In this document: positions 719 to 33,310 of the stretch, piece after piece
Layout of the letters: every line of letters starts with the position of its first letter
Position numbering within the stretch: the stretch's first letter is position 1
Assembly: GCA_000004695.1 (NCBI GenBank)
Contig: CM000150.2
Location: forward strand, 1,600,001 to 1,664,000
Direction of reading: 5' to 3'
From: Dictyostelium discoideum
Taxonomy: Eukaryota
Length of the DNA: 64,000 nt
Notes under the pieces: generated by a model
Databases searched by the model: none
Seen by the model: the letters and a program-made list of their open reading frames with translations, nothing else
What the model was told of the DNA's origin: nothing
Position numbers and translations under genes: made by a program

Positions 719-2124
719 GGATAATATTAGTAAAAAATTTATAATTAAATAAAAAAAAAATAAAATAAAAATAAAGAAAATTCATACCTTTGATATTTTT
801 CTTCTTTTGTATCTATATCATCATAAAAATTGAAAGGATCAGTGTGAATTTCAACACCTAAAACTTGATGAAACTTTGTATAATTTAAGGAATCTAAAAC
901 ATGAGTATTCCAAAAATTTTCTAAAAATGGTGGTGGATACAATGATGATGTTCTAAATATCCAACGAATTTTACCACTATATTGATCGAAATATTTAGTT
1001 GGAGTATCTTCTAAAATCTTTAAAATAAAAAATCTAACATATTCTTTTGCAGGTGAAAGTTGTAATAAATTTAATTTTAATCTATTTACTACTGGGTAAA
1101 AATTAAAATTATTCATTATATTTGATTCAAAATCATTAATATTTGATTTAATAATTGTTCTAAATTTTTCAATTTCACTACTATCATCATCACCATCTTG
1201 ATCATCATAATCATCATTATAATAATGTGATGAAATCTTTCTTTTCTTATTTCCCTTTTCAACTTGTACTTGATCCTCTTCTTCTTCTTCCTTTTCTTCT
1301 TCTTCTTCTTCTTCTTCATTATTTTTATAGTCACCACCATCTTTCTCTTGTTCCTCTTCTTTTTCTTTCTTTTCATCTTCTTGATCTTTTGAGGTTTTAA
1401 TAGTTAACCGTTTATTATATAATTTTGAATTTTCAATTGAAGATTGTAGTTGTGGTTGTGGTGGTTGTGGTGGTTGTGGTGGTTGTGGTGGTTGTGGTGG
1501 TTGTGGTTGTGGTTGTGGTGGTGGTGGTGGTGATGGTATTTCTTTTAATGCAGTATAAAAGGAACTAAAATAAACAAAACCATTTGAGAATTGATTTGGA
1601 TTGTTTTTTATAATTGCACCGATTTGAGCGAAAATATCAGTGAGTGATTTAATATATAATAGACCACTATGTGATGATATATACTCTTGAATATCATTAT
1701 AGTTGAAATAATATTTAAGCATTTCTTTATTTACTTGTTTTTTCTCTTGTAATGTATACTTAAATTTCTCTTGTAAATAATCTTGAATCTTAATTAAATT
1801 TAAAAGTGAAAATTTTATAATTTCTTGATATGATGATTTTTTATTTGGTATTTCAATATCATCATTATTATTATTATCATTATTTGTTGTTTTTTCTTCT
1901 TGACAAAGATAACATATACAAGGTATTGTTTTTAAATTTGATTTTGATTGTTTAATTAAATTGATATGGTTACTTTTTATATTGTCTTTAGCTTTTATTT
2001 TAAGCTCTCTAGAGACTTTGCGTATTTCATCAAATGATAATCCATCAAATATCCTTGCATTATAGGTGAACAATATCTTTTCGCTTGATTTAACCTTAAA
2101 TTTATGAAATGAAACTTCACTCAT
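589..2124 (-). CDS. Hypothetical protein with a (PQ/PPQ)n repeat and a long acidic Glu/Asp tract. Proposed exons are 2124..788 and 685..589.
   Basis: The 459-aa ORF starts at a real ATG (minus 2124). The track ORF reads on into AT-rich sequence. Instead a GTATGA donor follows ...EEKYQR at minus 787-786, then a 102-bp AT-rich intron with poly(A) and a TTAG acceptor. A GC-richer in-frame terminal exon at 685..589 encodes R-TLQLYQKYFEKMDSYSDIWIPSLVLEPKKEK and ends in TAA. The (GGTTGT)n repeat at 1449..1531 encodes the PQ repeats. Confidence 0.5.
1449..1531. repeat. (GGTTGT)n / (GGT)n hexanucleotide coding repeat that encodes PPQPPQ... on the minus strand
   Basis: Directly visible tandem ggttgtggtggttgtggtgg units. 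Confidence 0.9.
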
Positions 2125-2466
2125 TATGAAAGTTATGTCTCTATATCATTTCACTTCGTGTATTAAAAAAACTATTTAATATATGATTGTTTTTTTATTT
2201 TTATTTTTATCTATTTATTTTTTATTTTTTAAATATATAATAAGAAATGATGATGTAGATTATAATGAATAATAAAAAATTGAGAAGAAAAAAAAAAAAT
2301 TAAAAAATAAATTAAAAAAAAAAAAATCAAAAGATTCTCTGAAAAGGAAGGAATTCAATGAAGGTTGTTTTTTTTTTTTATTATTATTTTTATTTTAGTT
2401 TTTTTTTTAATTTTTTTTTTTTTATTTATTTATATTGTTTAATAAAAAAAACAATATAAATATAAA

Positions 2467-3407
2467 ATGTTTAATAATACAAATAAAATTATAGAAATTG
2501 AAAGAAATAATAATAAAAATATTGAAAAGGAATTATTCTATAAATATTTAAATGAAAACGAACCTATAATATTCACAAAATTTTCAACAGATTGGGAAGC
2601 ATTATCAAAATGGAATGATCCCAACTATCTCATCAATATTATTGGTAATGATCATATAGTGGATGTTAACAAATGTTCATTTGGTGGTTATTATAAAGAT
2701 ATTATCAAAATTAAATTCTCTGAATTCATATCAAAATCAATAAATAATCAATTTGATAATTTTGATTTAAATGGTATTTATTTTATTTTATTTTATTTTA
2801 TTATAAAAATAAAATTATAATAAAAATAATAAATTTATTTATTATTTAAATAGGAAATAAAATTAAAAAAGTAAATAAACCTTATTTAAGGAATTTTGAA
2901 ATGTTTGAAGATTTCCCAATTTTCGAGCAAGATATTAATTGTGATATTATATTTGACAAAGATAAACATAATTTAATTGTAAAGAGAGCATTTATTGGGA
3001 GTGTTGGATCAGCAACAAGTTTTCATATTGATACTGGTGATAATTTAGTTACTGTAATTAAAGGTTGTAAATTCATTGTAATGATATCACCAAATGATTC
3101 GAAATTTTTAGATTTTCAAAAAAGTAGAGAAATAGAAATATCTTTTAATCAAAATGATAATGATGGTATCCCATTAGAATATCATCCAGCTTTTTCAAAT
3201 TGTAAATATATTTATAAAACTTTATTAAGAAAAGGTGAATCATTATTCATACCAAATAATTGGACACATTATGTTCATAATATATCTGATCATGATGATA
3301 ACTTTAATGAAGATAATAATAATAATAATAATTGTAATAATAATAATAATTTAACAATTAGTGTTAGTTGTTGGGGAAAATCAATATATGATTTAGTTGT
3401 TGGATAA
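2467..3407 (+). CDS. JmjC (cupin-like) domain-containing protein. Proposed exons are 2467..2782 and 2854..3407.
   Basis: The two track ORFs (2467..2820 and 2901..3407) are in different frames. A GTATTT donor at 2783 and an AAATAG acceptor at 2852-2853 (phase 1) join them without stops. Motifs [17 protein letters not shown] and [24 protein letters not shown]...NNWTHYVHN are typical of the JmjC double-stranded beta-helix fold (H-x-D ... H). Confidence 0.55.
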
Positions 3408-3472
3408 AAAATAAAAAATAAAAAATTTTTAAAAAAAAGAAAAAGGGTAATATATTTATTTTTTATTTTATT

Positions 3473-4732
3473 TTATTTTTTTATTGGTATAATTGTTCTT
3501 CCAGATCTTGTTTGTAAAAGAGGAGTAGCAGTAGTGGCAGTAGTGGAATTGGTATTGGGTGTAAAAGTTGGTTGATTTCTATTAACTCTTTTTTTGTGAT
3601 TTAAATTAATTACCCAATCTAAATGTTTTAAATCATTTTCATATTTTAATTGATCTTTTTGTTGATTTGTAAGATCTTCATTTGTGATTAATCCAATCTC
3701 CATATAATATTGAAGTGTTTCAAATCTTCTATTTTCAACCATTTTTTCAATGAGGCAACTAGAGAAACCCAAAGATGGTATAAAAGTTCTTAATAATTCA
3801 AATTTACCAATACCATGTCTAATTACTCTAAAAACATCATTTTTAGTTTGAGTTGCAATGTTATCTTTTATCAAGTACTGTTTAATGCTTGGTAAAACGA
3901 TACCATTGGAAAATGTTAAAAAGTATTCCAAAGTTTGATTATCACATTCTGGTGAGAACAAAGATTTAATAATTTTATAACCTGTTAAAAATTCAATTGT
4001 TGAAGGTAATGTTGAATATTCAATATCTTTTACTAATAAAAGATCAACAATATCCAATCTTGATTTTGCAATTGCACATGACAATATCCAATCTTTACAT
4101 TTTTTAACATCTTTACCATACCACATTTTTAAGAGTGGTTGTTGTTCAGATTCATCTTTTGATTCATCAAAATTCTTTATAGTTGTTAAATTTATTAATT
4201 CAATAACATCTTCTAAAGTTATAAATTGAAATAATCTTGAAGTTGTAAGTGGAGGAAATTCAGAAACTGTTTTTGTTGCAACCAATTGTAAATGATTAAA
4301 AGCCAATTGAAATTCACCCTCTTCTATTAAAACTCTAAAATCTTTTGACCCATCAGGATGATAAAATGGATCAGAAGGATTATTATAATAATAACTTCTT
4401 TCCTCTGGGAAATAACTTTTAAATGTAGAATACTTTTCAAGTAAACTAAAATTTTGAAGTTCATAAATTGATTTAAAAATTTGAGATGCTGTATTTGAGT
4501 GTCTTTTTGATCTAATTCTACAAATAGATGAATTTTTTAAGCAAGGTAATCTTGAACTTGAAAATTCATTAAAATTTGAATTACTAAATGATCTAACAAA
4601 TAATTTTGATAATTTTCTATCTAATAAATGAAACCAATAAAATAATACAAAATTTGATACAACATTTTTTAAACTTTCATTATTAATATTACCACTATTA
4701 TTATAAGGTTGATAATTTAAAAGACCATAATA

Positions 4733-4767
<35 letters not shown>

Positions 4768-7291
4768 AATCTAAAATATAATTTGAATGATTTGGTAATA
4801 CACTTGGATAATTAATTTCATGTTCTTCATAAATTTTATTAACTTCAAGTAAATTATTTAATGTTACACCAGTTGATTGTAAGATTGAAATATATAAACT
4901 ATGGTAAATGAAAATCCAATCCTTTGAAGTTGGAAATAAATTTTCATCAATCAATTTCTTTAATATGTCTTTAGCATCAGAGAATTTGATATTTGTACTA
5001 AAATGACCATTGATATCATATTGATAATCTTTTGAACGAACATCATGAAATTCATAAATTCTTTTTTGAAAACTTAATTTATTTTTACAATTATCAATCA
5101 TTTCTAAAATTAATTTTCTATTTAAATTAACTGAATCTAATATAATTGAAAATTTTTTAAAATCAACTATATGAACTAAATGTATTAATAAATCTGATGA
5201 TAATTTAAATATTTTTTCATTAATATTATCTAAATTTGTAGTAGTTGTTGTTGTAGTTGTTGAAGTTGTTGTTGTTGTTGAAATTGGTTTAAAAATTTCT
5301 TGAAATTGTTGATTTGATTTTTCAGTATTTATTAATAATAATAATTCTAAAAGGTAACAAAATATACTTGGTGTAAAAGATTTGAAACCACTTGATTTTA
5401 AATAATTAAATAATTGATCCCTTGAATTTTCATCTTTAGTGAATTTTGAATCTTTAATATCAATATGATTATCTAATTTACCTTGATAATCGTCATATTC
5501 ATCATGTTCATCATATTCACCTTCAGCATAAACATCGGGATGGGATGAAGGTCCAACTTTTTTAAAATCATAAAATTCTGGTGAAATTCCATTTTTAAGT
5601 GGTTGATTCTCTAAAAATGATTTTTGAAATAAAATTTGAAATTTATTATTATTTTGATCACTATCAATTGAAACAACCTTATCAATACTTTCAATAGTTG
5701 AAATATCACAGTCTTTTAAAGCTCTTAAAAATGATAGATAATAAATTTCTTTATTTGAAAAATATTTATTTTTTAATAGAGATTGTAATTCAATAATTTG
5801 TTGTTCTAAATCTTCTTTTTTCTTTAATTGATTACTATTTGATGATGCTTTAGATCTAGTTGAGGAGGCAGTGTTGGTGGATGATGTTGACAATGATTCA
5901 ATTTCTTTATTTATTGATTGAATATTTGAATTTATTTGATTTTCAGATTCTTTTTGGCATTCTAATAATTTTGTATGAAAATAATTAGCAAGTTCAAAAT
6001 TTGAAAATTGTAAGAATCTTTGTCTAACATTTAAATAAATTGTAATATCATCTTTAAATTTAACTATTGAATCTTTTTTATTACTAGTATCATCAACTTT
6101 TTCTTTATTATTATCATCATCATTACCATCAACATCATTATCATCATCATCATCATCTTCTTCTTCACCATCATTGATTGTTGAAGCTGAGAATAAGTTT
6201 GTATTTTCATGTTTCTTTGTAAATTTATGAATTGATGGAACTAAATGATAGAAATCCTTATGTTGAATAATGAAATCTATAAATTCTTTTGATTTAATAA
6301 TCCATGGTATTGTATTGAATCTTTTAAACTCTAATGGATGTAAATGAGGAAGTAATAAATTGGTGATATATTGAATTGTTTCTTCATTAAAATTAAAAAA
6401 ATGTTTATTTGCAGGGAAACTATTGTATAATGTCTCTAGGAAATAATTTTTTTGTTTATATTCATTAATAACACCTGTATTCATTAAAGTTGAAATTTTT
6501 AAAAGTAAAGATGGAATGGTTGAAAATTTTAAATGACCATCTCTATTTTTATTAATAAAAACTGTATGCTCTCCAAGAATTTTTTTATCATATTTTTCAT
6601 TGGGGGTAGTTGTTGTTGTTGTAGTTGTTGATAATTTTTCACTTTCATCTGATGAATATACCTTTCCTTTGAAAATTAATTTAACTATACTACTAAACCA
6701 ACTATCACTAAATTCAATACCATTTTGGTTGAAATAAACTGTTAAGAATTTAAATAAATCATCTTCTTTAATACATTGAACTGTAATTGGTTGACCAATT
6801 AATAAATCTCTACTGATTTTTTTTTTGGGGTCTATTGGTTTTATTCTCTTGTCTTTATCTAAACCTTTGAATTGATCTTTATGTTTAATTATGAAATTTA
6901 GACAATCCAAATTTAATGATTGACTTGCATAATATGCTACCCAATATTTATTTTTTTCACACATAATTGCACCATGAGTGAATTCTATTGGTTGTTTATA
7001 TAAATTTAAATAGTTTAAATAACATCTATCATTTAGATTTGTATCACCTAATTGAATAACAATTGCTCTGATTTTCTTTTCAACAAATTCATGATCGTTT
7101 TTATTATTTAAAATCTCTTTAATTTCATCATTTCTTTTCTTTAATTCTAATTTCTTTGCTGTATTTTCACTATAAATATATGAAATTGCACCTTTAATAT
7201 ACTTTTCAATTTCTAATTCATTTTTGAATATTGGTATTGGTGTACGAATTTTATAATTTGAAAATTCTGGTATTACTTTCATTCTACCCAT
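3473..7291 (-). CDS. Large hypothetical protein (1272 aa) with poly-Thr, poly-Asn and acidic low-complexity tracts. I recognise no domain.
   Basis: Long uninterrupted ORF with a true ATG at minus 7291. Its codon usage matches neighbouring genes, and a poly(A/T)-rich promoter region lies upstream. Confidence 0.6.
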
Positions 7292-10000: not shown

Positions 10001-10863
10001 CCAAAAAATAACCACACACCCACTAATTTATTGTAAATATGGTTTTAATGAAATAAAAAAAACAAAAATAAAAACAACAATAATAAAAACATTGAATGGG
10101 GTCACAATTTAGAATTTCCACCCAATCATTTTTTTTATTTAAAACATTTTCTTAATTTAGCTACTTTAAAAAAACACAGTAGAAAAAAAAAAAAAAAAAA
10201 AAAAAAAAATAATAAATAAATTTTTAATTAATAATTATATTTCTCAATGTTCATTTGCAAAGATATAATCACCCATTACTCTATCATCACTATCACAAAA
10301 ACCCAACACAACCACTTTTTTTTTTTTTAAATTAAAATCAAAAAACACTTTCTCACCAAAAAATAAAAAACCCACAGTTCTCTAAATTTGCTTTCCAACC
10401 ATTTAATTATTTCTTTAAGAAACAATATTTGATTGCAACTACTCATCATATATATCATTATTAATAATATTATTATTATATTTTATTTTCATTGATTTCT
10501 TTTTATTATTTTTTTCAGTTTTAATTTGCTCATTGCCAATAATAATTTAAAAAAATAAAAATAAAAACAATAATAAAATTTCAAAACAAAAAAAACTTTT
10601 TTAATTATTAATAATAATTAATAATTTTTTTTATTATTTTCACTTTCTGTAAACATTTCTATACTTTTGTTATTATCTTAGATCCACATTGTTATAATGG
10701 TATTTGTTCTACACTTTAAACCTTCTATTGACGTTTTAAAACAGAAATCTAACTATCCTCTATAATTAAATATTTTTTTGTTTCTTCATTTATCTAATTA
10801 TAGTGGTCAACTTTTTTTATCAAAATTTAATTGGATGTGGCTTGCATCCTAAATCAAACAGAT

Positions 10864-10878
10864 AGGGAGATCGGTACA
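10864..10878. repeat. Target-site duplication (left copy, gggagatcggtacac) flanking the TRE3 insertion
   Basis: The identical 15-mer recurs at 15405..15419, immediately outside the element's poly(A) end and its 5' end. Confidence 0.7.
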
Positions 10879-10998
10879 CTTTTTTTTTTTTTTTTTTTTA
10901 CCTGTGATCAGACCTTCAAGGAATGTCCTTGTGTCTTTTCGGCGGTGTTTGTTAAACGGTTTTATTTTTATTATTCAATTGTATTAAATTTTTTAAAC

Positions 10999-11077
<79 letters not shown>

Positions 11078-11082
11078 ACTAC

Positions 11083-14000
11083 TTAAATTGGAAGAGGGTT
11101 CGGAGCTGCTGGGGTTTGCCAGGCTTTGTTGAATTTGTATTTGTGAAGATCTTGATTGGTGTTTTTTAGTATTGCTTCGTCGTGTTTGATTTTCTTTAGT
11201 GTGATGAATTTTTCAGTTTCGATGAGATTTAGTAATTCTGTTTCTATGACCTTTTGCTCGAATTTTGGCTCTGGTTTGCTTTCATCAGTGTTGAACAATT
11301 TGTGACAGATTATCTTCCATAATTGGTGTGCTATTATTCCTATGAGATTGGGGAAGATTCTCTCAGTTCTGTTGTATTTTGATATGTCTAAGGTATCCAT
11401 TGACCATCTGTGGATTTTGATGAATGATAATTTGTTAACTGTTGATATGATGGTTTTTTCAATATCTAGGATATCTTGGCATAGAGTGAAGAGGTGAGAA
11501 TAAGGGTCTCTGAATAGGTGGCCACAGATCTTGCATCTGGTGTCTCTTTCGTGGTTGATACCTGGAAGTGATCTTGAGAAGAATCTGAAGAGGGTGTTTC
11601 TACCTTTTTGGTGAGAAATGCTGTTGATGTTTATGAATACTTTGGGTATTTCTGTGTTGTATCTCACCGCCCATAACTTCTGCCATTCTGTTCTTCTTGG
11701 TGTTGGGTGTCTGTCTTTGATCATGAGTTCGTAAATTTCTTTCAGTTTTAGTGGTTCATCATTGTCGTTTCTTATACAGTCTGGAAGTTCATTTATCTTT
11801 GGATGATTTTGGTAAAATTTGACTCTGAATACACCCCAGTGTCTGCACATATCGTTGAGGGTTGAAGTGTGGGCTTTTTTTCTACTTAATTGCTCCATGT
11901 ACCATTCTTGTAAAGTATTGTTGTTGTTGTTGTAGTTGTTATGGAGTAGCCTGTTCATGTACCAGATTTTGAATGCTATATGTCTTAGTTCTATATCCCA
12001 TAATTTTATGCCTCCTTCTTTCCAATCTGCATATGCTCTGTCTATTTTCATCATAGTTTTGTATTTTCTCTCTTCTGTATATGTATTCTTAACTGAGGAG
12101 AATAAGAACCATCTGGTCATGTTATTGATTTCCTCAATTTGTTCTTCATTTAGATTATCCATGTATTGATGGTATGTTAATTTGGATAGAACGTATGTTT
12201 TGAGAATTGTCATCTTTGCCTTCATCGTTATTGCTTGTGATTTCCATTTGATTAGATTGTTTTTCATTTCTTGGATTAAAGTGTTGTATTTTGAATTTAA
12301 ACCTGTTTTGGTGAAATTGAGGCCAAGATATCTTTCTGGGACTGTACTCTCTTGGAATGGTAGATCGTGTGGTTTATCTCCTATTGCTATCATTACTGTT
12401 TTCTCTTTGTTTAACGATGATGATGTTGCTGAGCAGTACTTTTGGATTTTAGTATTAATTTTCATTAGTTCTTCTGTGGAGTTTGTAAAGGTTGCTATGT
12501 CGTCAGCAAATGCAGTGAGTTTTAATGATTTGGAATTTGGTAGAGTGAAGCCTTTGATTGTATTATCATTGATGATATCTATTAGAAGTGGTTCTAAAAC
12601 TAGAGCAAAGATTGTTGGTGATATTGGGTCTCCTTGTTTTGTTCCTCTTCTGATTGTTATTCCATTGACTAAAAAGTCGTTGATCTTTATTTTGTTTTTA
12701 GTATCTTTGAGTAGGTTTAGTAGGATCGCTGTGAATTTTGGGGGGATACCAATATGCTCTAATGTTCTTGTGATACTCTTGTGGCTGATTGAATCGAATG
12801 CTTTGTTAAAATCGTAAAAGGTAATGAGTGTATTGTTCTTTCTTTTGTTACTTATTTCTATTACTTCCTTCATGATCTGAATATTGTCTTGGATGAACCT
12901 GTTTGGAACAAAGCCGTTTTGAAATTTGTTGATAATTTTACTGGTGATATCTAATAATCTACTGTTGAGAATTTTGCTTAAAATTTTGTAATCTGTATTG
13001 AGAAGGGTGATTGGTCTTCTATTTGAAATGTTTAGTTCATCTCCTTTTTTGAATATTGTTGTTATTACTCCTTCTTTGAATTTTGTGGGGATTTCTTTCT
13101 TATTTGTGAGGAGGTCGTTGAAAGCTATAGTCAATATTCTTGCTATTGAGTTGATGTGGTACTTGTAGAATAGTGCATTGATACCGTCTAAACCTGGAGA
13201 TTTGTGGATACTTGAAGTTTTGATTGCTTTGGTCACTTCATGTATTCTTATTGGTCTGTCTATCTCTAGTTTCTTGATTAAATCAACGTCTACTTCCCAT
13301 TTTTCTAATAACTTCTTGTGGGTTTCTTCGTTATCTTCTTTCTCTTCATATTGATCTTGATAGAATTCAACAAATCTTTTTGCTATGTTCTCTTTATCTG
13401 ATATGGGCTTATTATCTTTATCTTTTATTTGGAATATTGATTTATCTTTGGCTCTGGATTTAAGGATACTTGTGAGGTATTTGCTTGGTGTTTCTTGATG
13501 CAGGTGGAGTTTTAATTTGATATCCCATGCTTTTACCTTTCTTTCTTCTTCTAATATTCTACTTATTTCTTCATTGAGTTCTTTTCTCATCTTTGGAATG
13601 ATATCACTATTTTCAAGTAATTTGTGGATTACGTATTTTCTTTTGTTCTTTTCTTTCTTTATTTTGTTTTGTTCTTTTTTTAAATAATCTCTGATGACAT
13701 TATTTTTAAATTTCGTCCATTCCTCCACTGATTTGATCTTATCTTTGTTCTTACTGATTAATTCTGATAACCCATCATGTATATGTTTGTTGTTGAGAAT
13801 TTCTTTACATAATGTCCAAGGGAGTCTTTCTAGTTTGGTTGTTGTTGTTGTTGTTGTTTCTCTGTTGGTTTGTATTGAGATTGTGATGGGAAAGTGATCT
13901 GATTTGTTAAATACTGTGTTGTGGACTACCAATTTTGAATTTTGGTTTAGTAGTGTTGGATGACAGTAGATTCTATCTAGTCTCTTCATTGATCTTGGAA

Positions 14001-14526
14001 ATGTTGGAGTGTTTTCTTCAATACCAGTATCTAGTAGCATGTCTTGGTCTATTATTTTACGTAATTCAGTACCGAAGAAGCTGTTGCAATCGTGGTTGTT
14101 ATTGAAGTCGCCTGCTATTATTTGATGGTTGATTGAATTATATTTTTTAAACAGTGATTTTGAGTTGATTATGAAGGTGTTTCTTTCAGATATAGTCGCT
14201 GGAGCATAGATCAATAATATGTTGATAGAATTAAAGGAATTGTATTTAATTGATAGTATTCTACCATCATCGTCTTTGAAGTTTATTGATATGTGGCCTT
14301 TTCTTGTATCTCTATTTTCTATTGCTATGCCAGTTCCTTTACCTGAACCATGATCTATTCTTTCAAAGTTGAACATTGTTTTGTGGTGGTTGAATCCATT
14401 GAAATTAGTTTCAGTTAGGAGTGCTAATTGAGTGCCAATTCTTTTTATCGTTTCTTCTGTTTTATTCTTAGCGTTGGTTGATTGATTACCTCTGCAGTTC
14501 CATAGTAATAATTTTAATTGTTCCAT
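11083..14526 (-). CDS. TRE3 ORF2 polyprotein (endonuclease + reverse transcriptase)
   Basis: 1147-aa ORF containing the APE endonuclease region, the RT domain with FADD and the C-terminal Cys/His motif. Confidence 0.8.
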   Translation of the reverse strand: MEQLKLLLWNCRGNQSTNAKNKTEETIKRIGTQLALLTETNFNGFNHHKTMFNFERIDHGSGKGTGIAIENRDTRKGHISINFKDDDGRILSIKYNSFNSINILLIYAPATISERNTFIINSKSLFKKYNSINHQIIAGDFNNNHDCNSFFGTELRKIIDQDMLLDTGIEENTPTFPRSMKRLDRIYCHPTLLNQNSKLVVHNTVFNKSDHFPITISIQTNRETTTTTTTKLERLPWTLCKEILNNKHIHDGLSELISKNKDKIKSVEEWTKFKNNVIRDYLKKEQNKIKKEKNKRKYVIHKLLENSDIIPKMRKELNEEISRILEEERKVKAWDIKLKLHLHQETPSKYLTSILKSRAKDKSIFQIKDKDNKPISDKENIAKRFVEFYQDQYEEKEDNEETHKKLLEKWEVDVDLIKKLEIDRPIRIHEVTKAIKTSSIHKSPGLDGINALFYKYHINSIARILTIAFNDLLTNKKEIPTKFKEGVITTIFKKGDELNISNRRPITLLNTDYKILSKILNSRLLDITSKIINKFQNGFVPNRFIQDNIQIMKEVIEISNKRKNNTLITFYDFNKAFDSISHKSITRTLEHIGIPPKFTAILLNLLKDTKNKIKINDFLVNGITIRRGTKQGDPISPTIFALVLEPLLIDIINDNTIKGFTLPNSKSLKLTAFADDIATFTNSTEELMKINTKIQKYCSATSSSLNKEKTVMIAIGDKPHDLPFQESTVPERYLGLNFTKTGLNSKYNTLIQEMKNNLIKWKSQAITMKAKMTILKTYVLSKLTYHQYMDNLNEEQIEEINNMTRWFLFSSVKNTYTEERKYKTMMKIDRAYADWKEGGIKLWDIELRHIAFKIWYMNRLLHNNYNNNNNTLQEWYMEQLSRKKAHTSTLNDMCRHWGVFRVKFYQNHPKINELPDCIRNDNDEPLKLKEIYELMIKDRHPTPRRTEWQKLWAVRYNTEIPKVFININSISHQKGRNTLFRFFSRSLPGINHERDTRCKICGHLFRDPYSHLFTLCQDILDIEKTIISTVNKLSFIKIHRWSMDTLDISKYNRTERIFPNLIGIIAHQLWKIICHKLFNTDESKPEPKFEQKVIETELLNLIETEKFITLKKIKHDEAILKNTNQDLHKYKFNKAWQTPAAPNPLPI

Positions 14527-15398
14527 TATTTTCTAATACTACTGGCAATTGGAAACTTGGTACCATTGCTTGTAGTAATTTTATTGATAGGTTTTGTAGT
14601 AGTAGTAGTAGTAGTAGTAGTTTTGTTTAGGTTGTAGATTGTTGTATTGCTTGTTGGTAATTGATGTGTGGTTGTTGTTGGTGTGGTTGTTGTTTGTGTG
14701 GTTGTTATTGGTGTGGTTGTTATTGGTGTGGTTGTTGATGTATTAGTTGTTGGTGGAGTTGATGGTATTGATTTAGTTGTATTTGTAGTTGTTGGTTGTT
14801 GGTTTTTATTACTTGTGTTTTTTTTTTTTCTAACATCTCTTATTTCTTTATTGTTATATTCAGAGATGAAGGCTCTTATTGGATGCTTACTACCTTTTAT
14901 AGCATCAATGTTTGTTTTAATGATTGAGATATCATCTTCTTTATTAAATAATAGTATGCATGAATATCTAATCACATCTGGTAGCATTACTATGTTGCAT
15001 TCATCTATTAGTAATGGCTCCAATCCCCAGTTTTCTTTTACCATTTGATTGTTTATTTTTTTTATTATGTTTTTTGTAAATGTGTAAAAGTGGACATAGT
15101 GATATCCTGGGGTGTAAAGTATGAATTTTTGCAGTGGGAAATCTTCATACTTGAAAGTGCTGTAACACTCGTGTAATAATGTGAATTTTTCTTTTAGTAT
15201 TCTACCGAATACTGTTATACCCTTTTGTCTTCTGACAATGTTAAGAGTACCATTAACTATGAAATTATCTATTAATTTTGTTGAATTACTATTTAATTCC
15301 AAGGTATTTGGGTAGAATAACCTTATTTGAATAGTTTTTTTATTTAACTCTTCTTCGCCTAAGTTGAGTTCACCTTTAAGTTTATCGAAAAAATTCAT
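14524..15398 (-). CDS. TRE3 ORF1 (Thr-rich nucleic-acid-binding protein)
   Basis: The true ATG is at minus 15398, since the track's first M is a GTG. The ORF ends in TAA, which overlaps the ORF2 ATG as TAATG. It has a Thr/Pro-rich C-terminus. Confidence 0.7.
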
Positions 15399-15404
15399 TT
15401 TTTG

Positions 15405-15419
15405 GGGAGATCGGTACAC
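15405..15419. repeat. Target-site duplication (right copy, gggagatcggtacac) of the TRE3 insertion
   Basis: Exact 15-bp match to 10864..10878. Confidence 0.7.
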
Positions 15420-15470
15420 GAAGTGGAACACTCTCCATAATTCTGCCCAGATTTACAAATAATTGTAATA

Positions 15471-15487
15471 TCCGAAGTTCGGATTTT
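15471..15487. promoter_or_regulatory. External B box (exB), a palindromic B-box-like element ccgaagttcggattttt downstream of tRNA-Pro
   Basis: It is GTTCGRATT-like and nearly palindromic, and lies 22-38 bp 3' of the tRNA. An extra B box downstream of tRNA genes is an established Dictyostelium feature and a TFIIIC site. The same element recurs at 18418..18434. Confidence 0.6.
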
Positions 15488-15508
15488 TGAAAATTCGTTA
15501 AAAAAACT

Positions 15509-15579
15509 GGGGAGATCCGAGAATCGAACTCAGGACGCTACCACCCAAAGGTAGCATTATACCACTTAACTAATCTCCC
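15509..15579 (-). tRNA. tRNA-Pro (anticodon UGG), 71 nt, no encoded CCA
   Basis: Manual folding gives acceptor GGGAGAT/ATCTCCC, D-arm GTTA..TAAT, anticodon stem CTACC/GGTAG with loop TTTGGGT (U33, anticodon TGG, G37), and T-arm CTGAG-TTCGATT-CTCGG. The discriminator is C. Confidence 0.8.
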
Positions 15580-17831: not shown

Positions 17832-18417
17832 TCTTTAATACATATTTATTTGTTATTTTCGATAAATATAAAAAAGATAATCTTAAAATAAAAAAATAAA
17901 ATAAAAAATTAAAATAAAGGTAAAAAAATAAAAAATTAAAATAAAAGTTAAAAAAAATCCTCTTTATTTCGAAAAAAACATCATTTTTTTATTATAATAA
18001 AAATAAAAAAAAAATATCAAGATTTTTTTTTTATGTCCTTTCATATGGGAAAAAATTGGTCAAGAATTTTTTTTTTTTTTTTTTTGATATTTTTTTTTTT
18101 TTTTTTTTTTGTGGAAGATTTGTCTGGTATGGATTTTTTCTTTTTTTTTTTTTTTTTTTAAATATTGGTCAGAGTTAAACAATAGTTTTAATTATTAATT
18201 ATAATTTTAAAATGTAGAATCGAGTATGAGAGCTTTCGTCTATAAATGGTTTCATGAACCAATATACAATTGATTACAGAACTTATGAATTATTAATTCC
18301 ATTATGTCTCTATATTCAAAGGTTTTTGAGGTCATTATTTAAAAATTTTTTACCTCATTCAAAATATTCTTTGTGGTCTATGTTAATCTTATTGATTATT
18401 ATTCAATATCTTAAATC

Positions 18418-18434
18418 CGAAGTTCGGATTTTTC
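18418..18434. promoter_or_regulatory. External B box (exB) downstream of the second tRNA-Pro copy
   Basis: Same ccgaagttcggattttt element as at 15471..15487, at the same spacing from the tRNA. Confidence 0.6.
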
Positions 18435-18453: not shown

Positions 18454-18524
18454 GGGGAGATCCGAGAATCGAACTCAGGACGCTACCACCCAAAGGTAGC
18501 ATTATACCACTTAACTAATCTCCC
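18454..18524 (-). tRNA. tRNA-Pro (UGG), second copy, identical to the one at 15509..15579
   Basis: Identical 71-nt sequence, including a conserved 3' flank of about 45 bp. Confidence 0.8.
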
Positions 18525-32148: not shown

Positions 32149-32773
32149 AAAAAAAAAGTACTTTATATGGTTACTAGAGTACCTAGATTCGTGACATGTT
32201 CTTCTTATGATGTTTGTTCTTGTAAATTTGTTAATGATTGCAATGCCTTCATAAACGATAATTTATCATAGTAAATAAAATAAATTAAAACATATAATTG
32301 TACAAAGCAAATTCCTATTTTTTCGTTTATTTAAAAATAAAACCAAAATATAAATTTTATTTTGGTTAATTTTTTTTTTTTTTTTTTTTTTCTAATCAAA
32401 TAAATAAAAGATTAATTATAAATAATTTTTTATATGTGTTCAAATTTTATTTTTGTATTGGCAAAACTTATTAAAATAACTCGGAACATTGTCCCACTTA
32501 GTTCAAAGGTTTTCTGTAATCAATAATGGCAATGGCACAGTGAGTGAAAGTTTCAAGCTTTCTTCAAACAAAATTACCCTTTCAATTTTTTGTATTTATA
32601 GTAAATTCCCAGCCATTTTATTGTTTAATTAATGTTTTTTTAAAAATGTATACAATATTTAGTTATGATTCCAATTATTATATTAAGTTTCTTATATGCG
32701 ACCAAAAATGTTTTTTCACCAAAAAAAATTTAAAAATGCATTGGAGCAAAATTAACAAAATTTCATAATAAGT

Positions 32774-32846
32774 GCCTGGATGGCTCAGTAGGCAGAGCGA
32801 GCGGCTGTTAACCGCTAGGTCCATGGTTCGATCCCATGTCTAGGCG
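32774..32846 (+). tRNA. tRNA-Asn (anticodon GUU), 73 nt
   Basis: Manual folding gives acceptor GCCTGGA/TCTAGGC, D-arm GCTC-AGTAGGCA-GAGC, anticodon stem AGCGG/CCGCT with loop CTGTTAA (anticodon GTT), variable loop AGGTC, and T-arm CATGG-TTCGATC-CCATG. The discriminator is G. Confidence 0.8.
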
Positions 32847-32876
32847 ATAATTTTCCACCACAATTACACGGTTTAA

Positions 32877-32887
32877 GGGTTCGATTC
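32877..32887 (+). promoter_or_regulatory. External B box (GGGTTCGATTC) about 31 bp downstream of tRNA-Asn
   Basis: It matches the internal B-box consensus GGTTCGANTCC, and its position fits the Dictyostelium exB arrangement. Confidence 0.6.
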
Positions 32888-32992
32888 TGACCAAAATGAA
32901 ACGGAGGTATTGAAAAAAAAATAAAATTAAAAAAAAAATAAACCTTCATCTATAACTAAGGTATCCCCCAATAATATATATTAAAGTAATAT

Positions 32993-33120
32993 GATATATA
33001 ATATAGTTTAAAAAATTTAATACAATTGAATAATAAAAATAAAACCGTTTAACAAACACCGCCGAAAAGACACAAGTACATTCCTTGAAGGTCTGATCAC
33101 AGGTAAAAAAAAAAAAAAAA
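32993..33120 (+). mobile_element. 5'-truncated solo 3' end (C-module + poly(A)) of a TRE3-type retrotransposon, flanked by a 17-bp target-site duplication (atatattaaagtaatat at 32976..32992 and 33120..33136)
   Basis: About 110 nt (...atataatatagtttaaaaaatttaatacaattgaataataaaaataaaaccgtttaacaaacaccgccgaaaagacacaagTacattccttgaaggtctgatcacaggt-A16) match the 3' end of the full-length element at 10879..11000 with a single mismatch. It lies about 137 bp downstream of tRNA-Asn and about 95 bp past its exB. Confidence 0.75.
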
Positions 33121-33310
33121 TATATTAAAGTAATATAAAAAAAATCTATATTATCCAACTTTCTTTATAGTTTCTTAACATTTTAAACATGCACCAAAAT
33201 ATCTTTTTTTTTATTTTAAACTTTTTTTTTTTTTTAGATTTTTAATTTTTAATTTTTTTTATTTTTTATTTTTTTATTTTAAACTTTTTTTTTTACCCAA
33301 CACCCTTGTA

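Follow-up and report, generated by a model that had tools for sequence, protein, structure and literature searches.

A young TRE3 retrotransposon copy 3' of a tRNA-Pro(UGG) gene of Dictyostelium discoideum, with complete coding sequence and a probably truncated 5' end

Anatomy of the locus

The window analysed here, a stretch of 64,000 nt of the Dictyostelium discoideum genome (contig CM000150.2), contains a retrotransposon without long terminal repeats (non-LTR) on its minus strand, 3' of a tRNA-Pro(UGG) gene. All positions below are numbered in the whole window, and the element is read on the minus strand. The insert between the two copies of its target-site duplication (TSD) is 4,525 bp long (10880-15404) and carries two open reading frames (ORFs). 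It starts at +105 from the tRNA gene (104 nt lie between them), both gene and element are on the minus strand, and the G+C content is 32% in the element and 22% in the window. The best overall explanation, which we hold to be very probable, is that this is a young, coding-competent, 5'-truncated copy of a TRE3 element, most likely of subfamily TRE3-C. TRE3 elements, their tRNA-gene targeting and this locus (DDB_G0268582 in AX4) have already been described or annotated. The features, in the order in which the element is read, are as follows:

15509-15579, minus strand: tRNA-Pro(UGG), the target gene (ARAGORN; Rfam tRNA 57 bits, E 1e-10)
15500-15506, minus strand: run of seven T just 3' of the tRNA gene (read from the sequence)
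15470-15484, no strand: 15-nt palindrome ATCCGAACTTCGGAT, a candidate external B-box-like element
15405-15419, minus strand: 5' copy of the TSD, an exact 15-mer (sense GTGTACCGATCTCCC)
15399-15404, minus strand: residual leader, C followed by AAAAA, the 6 nt from the TSD to the ORF1 ATG (recognised by homology to other copies)
14526-15398, minus strand: ORF1, 290 aa plus stop (ATG at 15398, stop at 14526-14528)
14524-14528, minus strand: TAATG stop/start overlap, with ORF2 in the -1 frame relative to ORF1
11083-14526, minus strand: ORF2, 1,147 aa plus stop
11008-11074, minus strand: internal oligo(A) of 67 nt, 3' of TAA-GTAGTAGT
10900-11007, minus strand: 3' module of 108 nt, TATAATATAG...GGTCTGATCACAGGT, conserved in all copies and between species
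10880-10899, minus strand: terminal poly(A) of 20 nt
10865-10879, minus strand: 3' copy of the TSD

From its position the T run at 15500-15506 is probably the RNA polymerase III (Pol III) terminator. The 15-mer that bounds the element (GGGAGATCGGTACAC when read on the plus strand) is found at exactly two places in the 64-kb window, one at each element junction, and the chance expectation of a G+C-rich 15-mer in a window of 22% G+C is about 1e-11 per position pair. A first-pass annotation of the same DNA had proposed an exact 15-bp duplication flanking the element, an insertion about 105 bp downstream of tRNA-Pro and an ORF1 ATG 6 nt from the 5' junction, and all of these are found at the coordinates given above; the 19-nt poly(A) tail and the internal A75 that it reported come to 20 and 67 nt, respectively, when counted. 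The 5'-most C of the element (15404) has no counterpart in other copies and is possibly untemplated.

Both ORFs are open, overlap by TAATG and include an endonuclease, a reverse transcriptase (RT) and a Cys/His motif, as that annotation also stated, and on this point ORF reading, Pfam and motif scanning agree. The check for frameshifts and stops came out the same way in a second assembly, GCA_054883475.1, in which both ORFs are likewise open. Pfam places Exo_endo_phos at aa 8-211 of ORF2 (13894-14505) and RVT_1 at aa 493-737 (12316-13050), and the motif scan of ORF2 gives SDH, FADD at aa 673-676 and a CX2CX9HX4C Cys/His knuckle at aa 998-1016 (11479-11535). The best match of ORF2, 99% identical, is the representative of a 55-member Dictyostelium protein cluster. 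Relative to the family majority there are four private amino acid changes in ORF2 and two in ORF1, all outside the catalytic motifs.

ORF1 is identical to the annotated D. discoideum AX4 protein DDB_G0268582 and 98.97% identical to GenBank AAD43058.1 'gag', with which it shares a cluster. Pfam finds no domain in it, and its C-terminal third is rich in Thr, Pro and Asn. The AlphaFold model of ORF1 is poor (mean predicted local distance difference test score, pLDDT, 47.5); moderate confidence is confined to aa 96-180, which have a predicted beta-alpha-beta-beta-alpha-beta topology that resembles ferredoxin or an RNA recognition motif (RRM) and is followed by a predicted disordered, Thr-rich tail. 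A Foldseek search of this model against the PDB returned nothing below E 0.01 and generic ferredoxin-like folds only.

The TAATG overlap is kept in every copy, in D. cf. discoideum, in D. citrinum and in a distant TRE3 family of ~5.25 kb, here called X, which keeps it though its ORF2 is only 33% identical (the overlap lies elsewhere at L001 2736-2740, L009 ~3349-3353 and L010 ~3903-3907; L-numbers denote fetched loci). This conservation suggests that ORF2 is translated by termination-reinitiation at UAAUG.

Comparison with other copies

The window copy was compared with 7 further copies from other Dictyostelium assemblies, which were reached via members of the protein clusters and are 99.0-99.5% identical to it. 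Full-length members have a 5' untranslated region (UTR) of about 255 nt that starts AGCCTACAGTTGATCAAACGG (seen in L002 and L001a). In L002 the element begins 98 bp after a tRNA-Ser gene with AGCCTACAGTTGATCAAACGGATACTAGATACAG... and the ORF1 ATG follows ~255 nt on, through an A-rich stretch, and in L001a the same leader stands immediately 3' of the poly(A) of another TRE3. L005 has its 5' end at leader nt 31 and L003 at about leader nt 144; the partial leader of L003 sits within that copy's own 13-bp duplication (CAATCTAAACAAA), so the leader belongs to the element. Because the homology of the window copy to the others begins only at 15403, and the ~255-nt leader of L002, L001a and L005 is missing from it, the window copy is very probably 5'-truncated, with its whole 5' UTR lost and its coding sequence complete. 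The description 'intact full-length' in the first-pass annotation thus has to be given up, and the near-absence of a 5' UTR, which it had flagged as odd, would be the result of truncation at the oligo(A) before the ORF1 ATG.

Loss of the leader by deletion after insertion is ruled out by the TSD, which is intact at both sides, and an assembly artefact is ruled out by the same insertion in the second assembly. Microhomology between the end of the TSD and the point of truncation proved inconsistent for the A-tract 5' ends (described below), being possible in L003 and not in the window copy or L010.

The terminus of the leader resembles the 5' end of family X (L001 ~1322-6570). The motif GATCAA..GGATAC.AGATACA is common to the 5' termini of these two TRE3 families (L001 ~1322-1360 and L002 6746-6780), and it may be a conserved 5'-terminal or promoter element. 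The window copy probably has no promoter of its own, and its self-transcription is unlikely because the presumed promoter-bearing leader is missing. The first-pass annotation had called it a recent, possibly competent copy; 'recent' stands for the reasons that follow, and retrotransposition competence is, as judged from the missing leader, doubtful rather than likely.

Assembly GCA_054883475.1 (L006) has the same insertion with the same TSD, and over 17 kb this locus shares 99.76% identity with the window. The two elements differ by 1 substitution and in A-tract length; their ORF1 products are identical and their ORF2 products differ by 1 aa. L007 (GCA_054859385.1) and L008 (GCA_054859355.1) lack the insertion at the collinear locus. 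Given copy identities of 99.0-99.5%, a perfect TSD and absence from two divergent lineages, we take the insertion to be young and lineage-specific. A clean empty site with a single 15-mer was not found in L007 and L008 (~90% identical), which also lack ~57 bp around the target. Both of these loci are labelled D. discoideum, yet over this locus, which is rich in genes, they are only ~88-94% identical to the window, an unexpectedly deep divergence for one species name.

At the 3' end every copy that reaches it has the same layout: TAA, GTAGTAGT, oligo(A), the 108-nt module ending GGTCTGATCACAGGT, and poly(A). The internal A tract is 27 nt long in L001b, 28 in L004, 30 in L003 and 38 in L005; a D. 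cf. discoideum relative (ORF2 only 86% identical) has 35 nt and D. citrinum ~20 nt, and at the same locus in L006 the tract is 33 nt, versus 67 in the window. Other copies therefore do share the tract (at 27-38 nt in the four named first), and what had been called unusual is a conserved family feature of variable length: as far as the compared sequences tell, internal oligo(A) plus 108-nt module is the normal 3' UTR architecture of the family. The value of 67 nt was not reproduced in the second assembly and reflects either slippage or an assembly-dependent value or artefact. In an Rfam scan the tRNA was the only match, with none for the 3' module, whose predicted fold is modest (-15.2 kcal/mol, z -2.3 versus shuffles); its copies are too alike for a covariation test.

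A second copy of the same family lies in the window at 32993-33119 on the plus strand and consists only of the 3' module and ~A15. It is flanked by a 17-bp TSD (ATATATTAAAGTAATAT at 32976-32992 and 33120-33136), starts ~146 nt downstream of a tRNA-Asn(GUU) gene (32773-32847), and has a 5' end that corresponds to the 3' edge of the internal A tract in the family.

Family assignment and alternative readings

To which family does the element belong? TRE3 elements are known from the literature as two-ORF non-LTR retrotransposons with short UTRs and an ORF2 that comprises an apurinic/apyrimidinic endonuclease (APE), an RT and a zinc finger, and the window element has all of these properties; its APE-RT-Cys/His order, its distance from and orientation to the tRNA gene, and its oligo(A) tail with TSD are those of TRE3. 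Other copies have distances of +83 to +146 from genes for tRNA-Ser, -Leu, -Pro, -Asp and -Asn, always in the same orientation, and six other copies share the placement of the window copy 3' of a tRNA gene on the same strand. These positions and the +105 of the window copy agree with the published ranges downstream of tRNA genes, 40-150 bp for TRE3 and 14-305 bp for TRE3-C (PMC5911963, PMC5006619). ORF2 is 59% identical to the DDB_G0269266 family and 33-34% identical both to the AAD43057.1 'pol' family (33%) and to the TRE5-positioned P0008 family. The assignment to TRE3 is based on position, on the ORF1 identity to AAD43058.1 'gag' and on the AX4 annotation, and it agrees with the first-pass call of a TRE3-type element, the TSD, open ORFs, position and orientation being typical of TRE3.

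The subfamilies TRE3-A to -D are said to have been defined by Szafranski et al. in 1999 and Glockner et al. in 2001. Their consensus lengths are 5,229 bp (TRE3-A), 5,279 bp (TRE3-B) and 4,734 bp (TRE3-C), with a partial one of 1,559 bp for TRE3-D, and their ORF-intact full-length copies number 13, 9, 2 and 0, respectively (PMC5006619, Table 1). With the 255-nt leader added, the reconstructed unit of our family is 4,714-4,754 bp plus tail. From this length, the copy-number pattern and the adjacency of GenBank accessions we think it likely that the element is a TRE3-C copy. The DDB_G0269266 family is then probably TRE3-D. The larger class (~5.25 kb) is represented in the fetched loci by two families, X and that of AAD43057.1, with 39% identity between them. 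Membership of the element in TRE3-B or TRE3-D would follow another reading of the same accessions: AAD43058.1 'gag' comes directly after AAD43057.1 'pol', so that if 'pol' is TRE3-A the next record would be TRE3-B. We consider this unlikely, however, because TRE3-C is the only subfamily that a unit of ~4.73 kb fits, TRE3-A and TRE3-B are longer at ~5.25 kb, a size for which two distinct families have been found, and AX4 contains neither a full-length nor an ORF-intact copy of TRE3-D while the family of our element has several ORF-intact ones.

The 5' ends of the copies bear on the remaining alternatives. All four of the ORF-intact copies examined (window/L006, L004, L010 and L003, a set of 4 loci selected for intact ORFs) start inside oligo(A) tracts, with 5' ends at window 15404, L004 ~2989, L010 ~2979 and L003 ~2905. 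Three of the four start in the A tract that abuts the ATG (the last ~25 nt of the leader) and the fourth, L003, in another A tract, and in the copies with a complete or nearly complete leader (L002, L001a and L005) the ORFs are broken in 3 of 3. For 5' ends in A tracts, a stall of RT on oligo(A) and a transcription start inside the element would both be sufficient explanations. In the reading that follows from the first-pass annotation, the window copy would be a complete TRE3 unit with a natural 5' UTR of a few nt, a retrotransposition-competent master copy. Such a unit would have both ORFs open and near consensus (4 and 2 private changes), a perfect TSD and a pure A20 tail, as the window copy does, and L004 and L010, also ORF-intact, start in the same pre-ATG A tract. 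It is nevertheless very improbable, since graded copies reach up to 255 nt further 5' through contiguous sequence that is 98-99% identical (AGCCTACAG... leader), the partial leader of L003 lies within its own duplication, the leader of L002 has its start at +98 from a tRNA gene, a canonical distance, and the window copy falls short of the published TRE3-C consensus by ~210 bp. The leaderless form might instead be a regular product of the family, its RNA starting or being cut at the oligo(A) by the AUG, 3' of a TATATAAA-like box that the 5' UTR contains, so that daughters would systematically be born without a promoter; this would refine the explanation by 5' truncation and not exclude it. The start of three of the four ORF-intact copies within ~25 nt of the ATG has a rough chance of ~0.004 under uniform 5' ends over the leader, the fourth also starts in an A tract, and every full-leader copy has broken ORFs. 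There are only 4 loci, though, and these were chosen for intact ORFs; the 3' half of the leader is very A-rich anyway, stalling of RT on oligo(A) should give the same pattern, and deep truncations are found at non-A sites. On balance we find a regular leaderless product improbable, and the wider proposition that coding-competent TRE3-C copies are systematically leaderless, for example through an internal start 3' of the TATATAAA-like box, is equally hard to favour.

We thus retain a young, 5'-truncated TRE3 copy, most likely TRE3-C, as the explanation. Some points count against it: the three independent ORF-intact copies have nearly the same 5' end, so that the leaderless form could after all be a regular product; the promoter role of the TRE3-C 5' UTR is argued by analogy with TRE5-A and L1; the empty-site alleles of L007 and L008 lack the ~57 bp around the TSD as well; and the choice among TRE3-A, -B, -C and -D draws on unit length, copy-number pattern and accession adjacency, not on a named reference sequence.

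Target gene, proposed mechanism and related systems

The palindrome at +25 to +39 from tRNA-Pro is 65 nt from the element, close to the ~67 bp at which the first-pass annotation had put what it called the external B box (exB). We used as the criterion for an exB the B-box consensus GGTTCGAATCC at ~20-40 bp downstream of the tRNA coding region, and the best match of the palindrome to it is 7/11, on the antisense strand only. Canonical 9/11 sense-strand exB sequences are present at +31 to +37 after tRNA-Asn (window), tRNA-Pro (L004) and tRNA-Trp (L009), that of tRNA-Asn(GUU) being GGTTCGATTCT at 32878-32888. The paralogous tRNA-Pro(UGG) gene at 18454-18524 on the minus strand, 2.9 kb away, has the same palindrome at 18415-18429 and no TRE insertion, and the palindrome is kept in the ~90%-identical L007 and L008 with its central base alone changed. 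The position of the palindrome is conserved, and an exB-like role for it is plausible from the sequence. The motif CGAACTTCGGAT, which also follows tRNA-Asp in D. citrinum (L010 ~2905-2916), may be a variant exB; it recurs 20-40 nt 3' of different tRNA genes, Pro in D. discoideum and Asp in D. citrinum. Guidance of TRE3 by TFIIIC and B boxes is a hypothesis suggested by the positions of TRE3 elements and by the literature.

The insertion would have arisen by target-primed reverse transcription (TPRT) ~100 bp downstream of tRNA-Pro(UGG) and in the orientation of that gene. In this scheme the AP-endonuclease of ORF2, itself probably made by termination-reinitiation at UAAUG, would nick the target, the RT of ORF2 would start at the poly(A) end of the RNA and copy it, and a staggered second nick would give the 15-bp duplication. 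The target has no T-rich priming site (the sense flank reads ...CCACTTC and then the duplicated GTGTACCGATCTCCC), which fits targeting by position and not by sequence. The reverse transcript, or else its RNA template, would have come to an end in the oligo(A) next to the ORF1 AUG, and this would explain why both ORFs are complete and the ~255-nt 5' UTR is absent. The window copy probably does not act as an autonomous source; its proteins could still be made if read-through transcription reached it.

Among known systems the element is most like TRE3-C as tabulated by Spaller et al. (2016; PMC5006619, Table 1), with two ORFs, the order APE-RT-zinc knuckle, an oligo(A) tail, a reconstructed unit of ~4.73 kb against the 4,734-bp consensus, and few ORF-intact copies; it differs in that the window copy is without the ~255-nt 5' UTR. 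With TRE3-A and TRE3-B (~5.23 and 5.28 kb) it shares the location ~100 bp 3' of tRNA genes, the domain order, UAAUG and a related 5'-terminal motif, whereas these elements are ~500 bp longer and have different 3' ends, an ORF2 that is only 33% identical and a longer ORF1 (~417 aa in X) of unrelated sequence. TRE5-A (DRE) belongs to the same superfamily and also targets tRNA genes, with an APE-RT-zinc finger ORF2 and modular UTRs, but TRE5 elements are inserted in the opposite orientation and ~50 bp upstream of the tRNA gene. TRE5-A targeting, through interaction of its ORF1 protein with TFIIIB and dependence on the B box, has been shown experimentally, and that of TRE3 has not (PMC5911963). 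The P0008 family is assigned to the TRE5 type because a 5'-truncated copy of it (L004 9706-10173, minus strand) lies 56 bp upstream of a tRNA-Pro gene (10229-10299) in the opposite orientation.

Mammalian 5'-truncated LINE-1 copies have the same hallmarks of TPRT, poly(A), a duplication of 7-20 bp and variable 5' truncation, and an ORF-intact copy without promoter is 'dead on arrival' as a source element; L1, however, picks T-rich nick sites, while the Pol III gene next to the present insertion sets its position. In SART1 of Bombyx mori, UAAUG is reportedly used for stop-start translational coupling, as Kojima et al. are said to have found in 2005. Its ORF1 stop and ORF2 start overlap as UAAUG, as they do in the window element, but SART1 is of another clade and has a telomeric-repeat target, and for TRE3 the coupling is suggested by the sequence.

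The fetched loci also contain nested, short, 5'-truncated TRE insertions (L001 6638-6806 and 10337-10500; L001 13880-13905, minus strand; L005 7484-7515), which comprise ~150-bp 3' ends of family X and ~15-nt stubs of '...ACCGCTTTTAGGT' plus poly(A). One nested TRE insertion lies inside a TRE3-C leader and has its own duplication, ACATCAACT. Directly downstream of a tRNA-Pro gene in L001 there is a long tandem array of a 13-bp unit, TTTTTTCAATTCC (13810-14090, minus strand), into which a TRE3-C fragment has inserted.

Beyond a correct annotation of the locus these results signify very little. For that annotation, open ORFs are not the same as full length, and the window copy should not be counted as an autonomous source without expression data; a long internal A tract is normal in the family, its length varies and its size is assembly-dependent. 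The recurrent oligo(A) 5' ends are a small lead on the transcription and truncation of TRE3-C: if the leaderless form were indeed a regular product, the family would have promoter-less, protein-coding daughters that rely on the tRNA-gene neighbourhood or on read-through for their expression.

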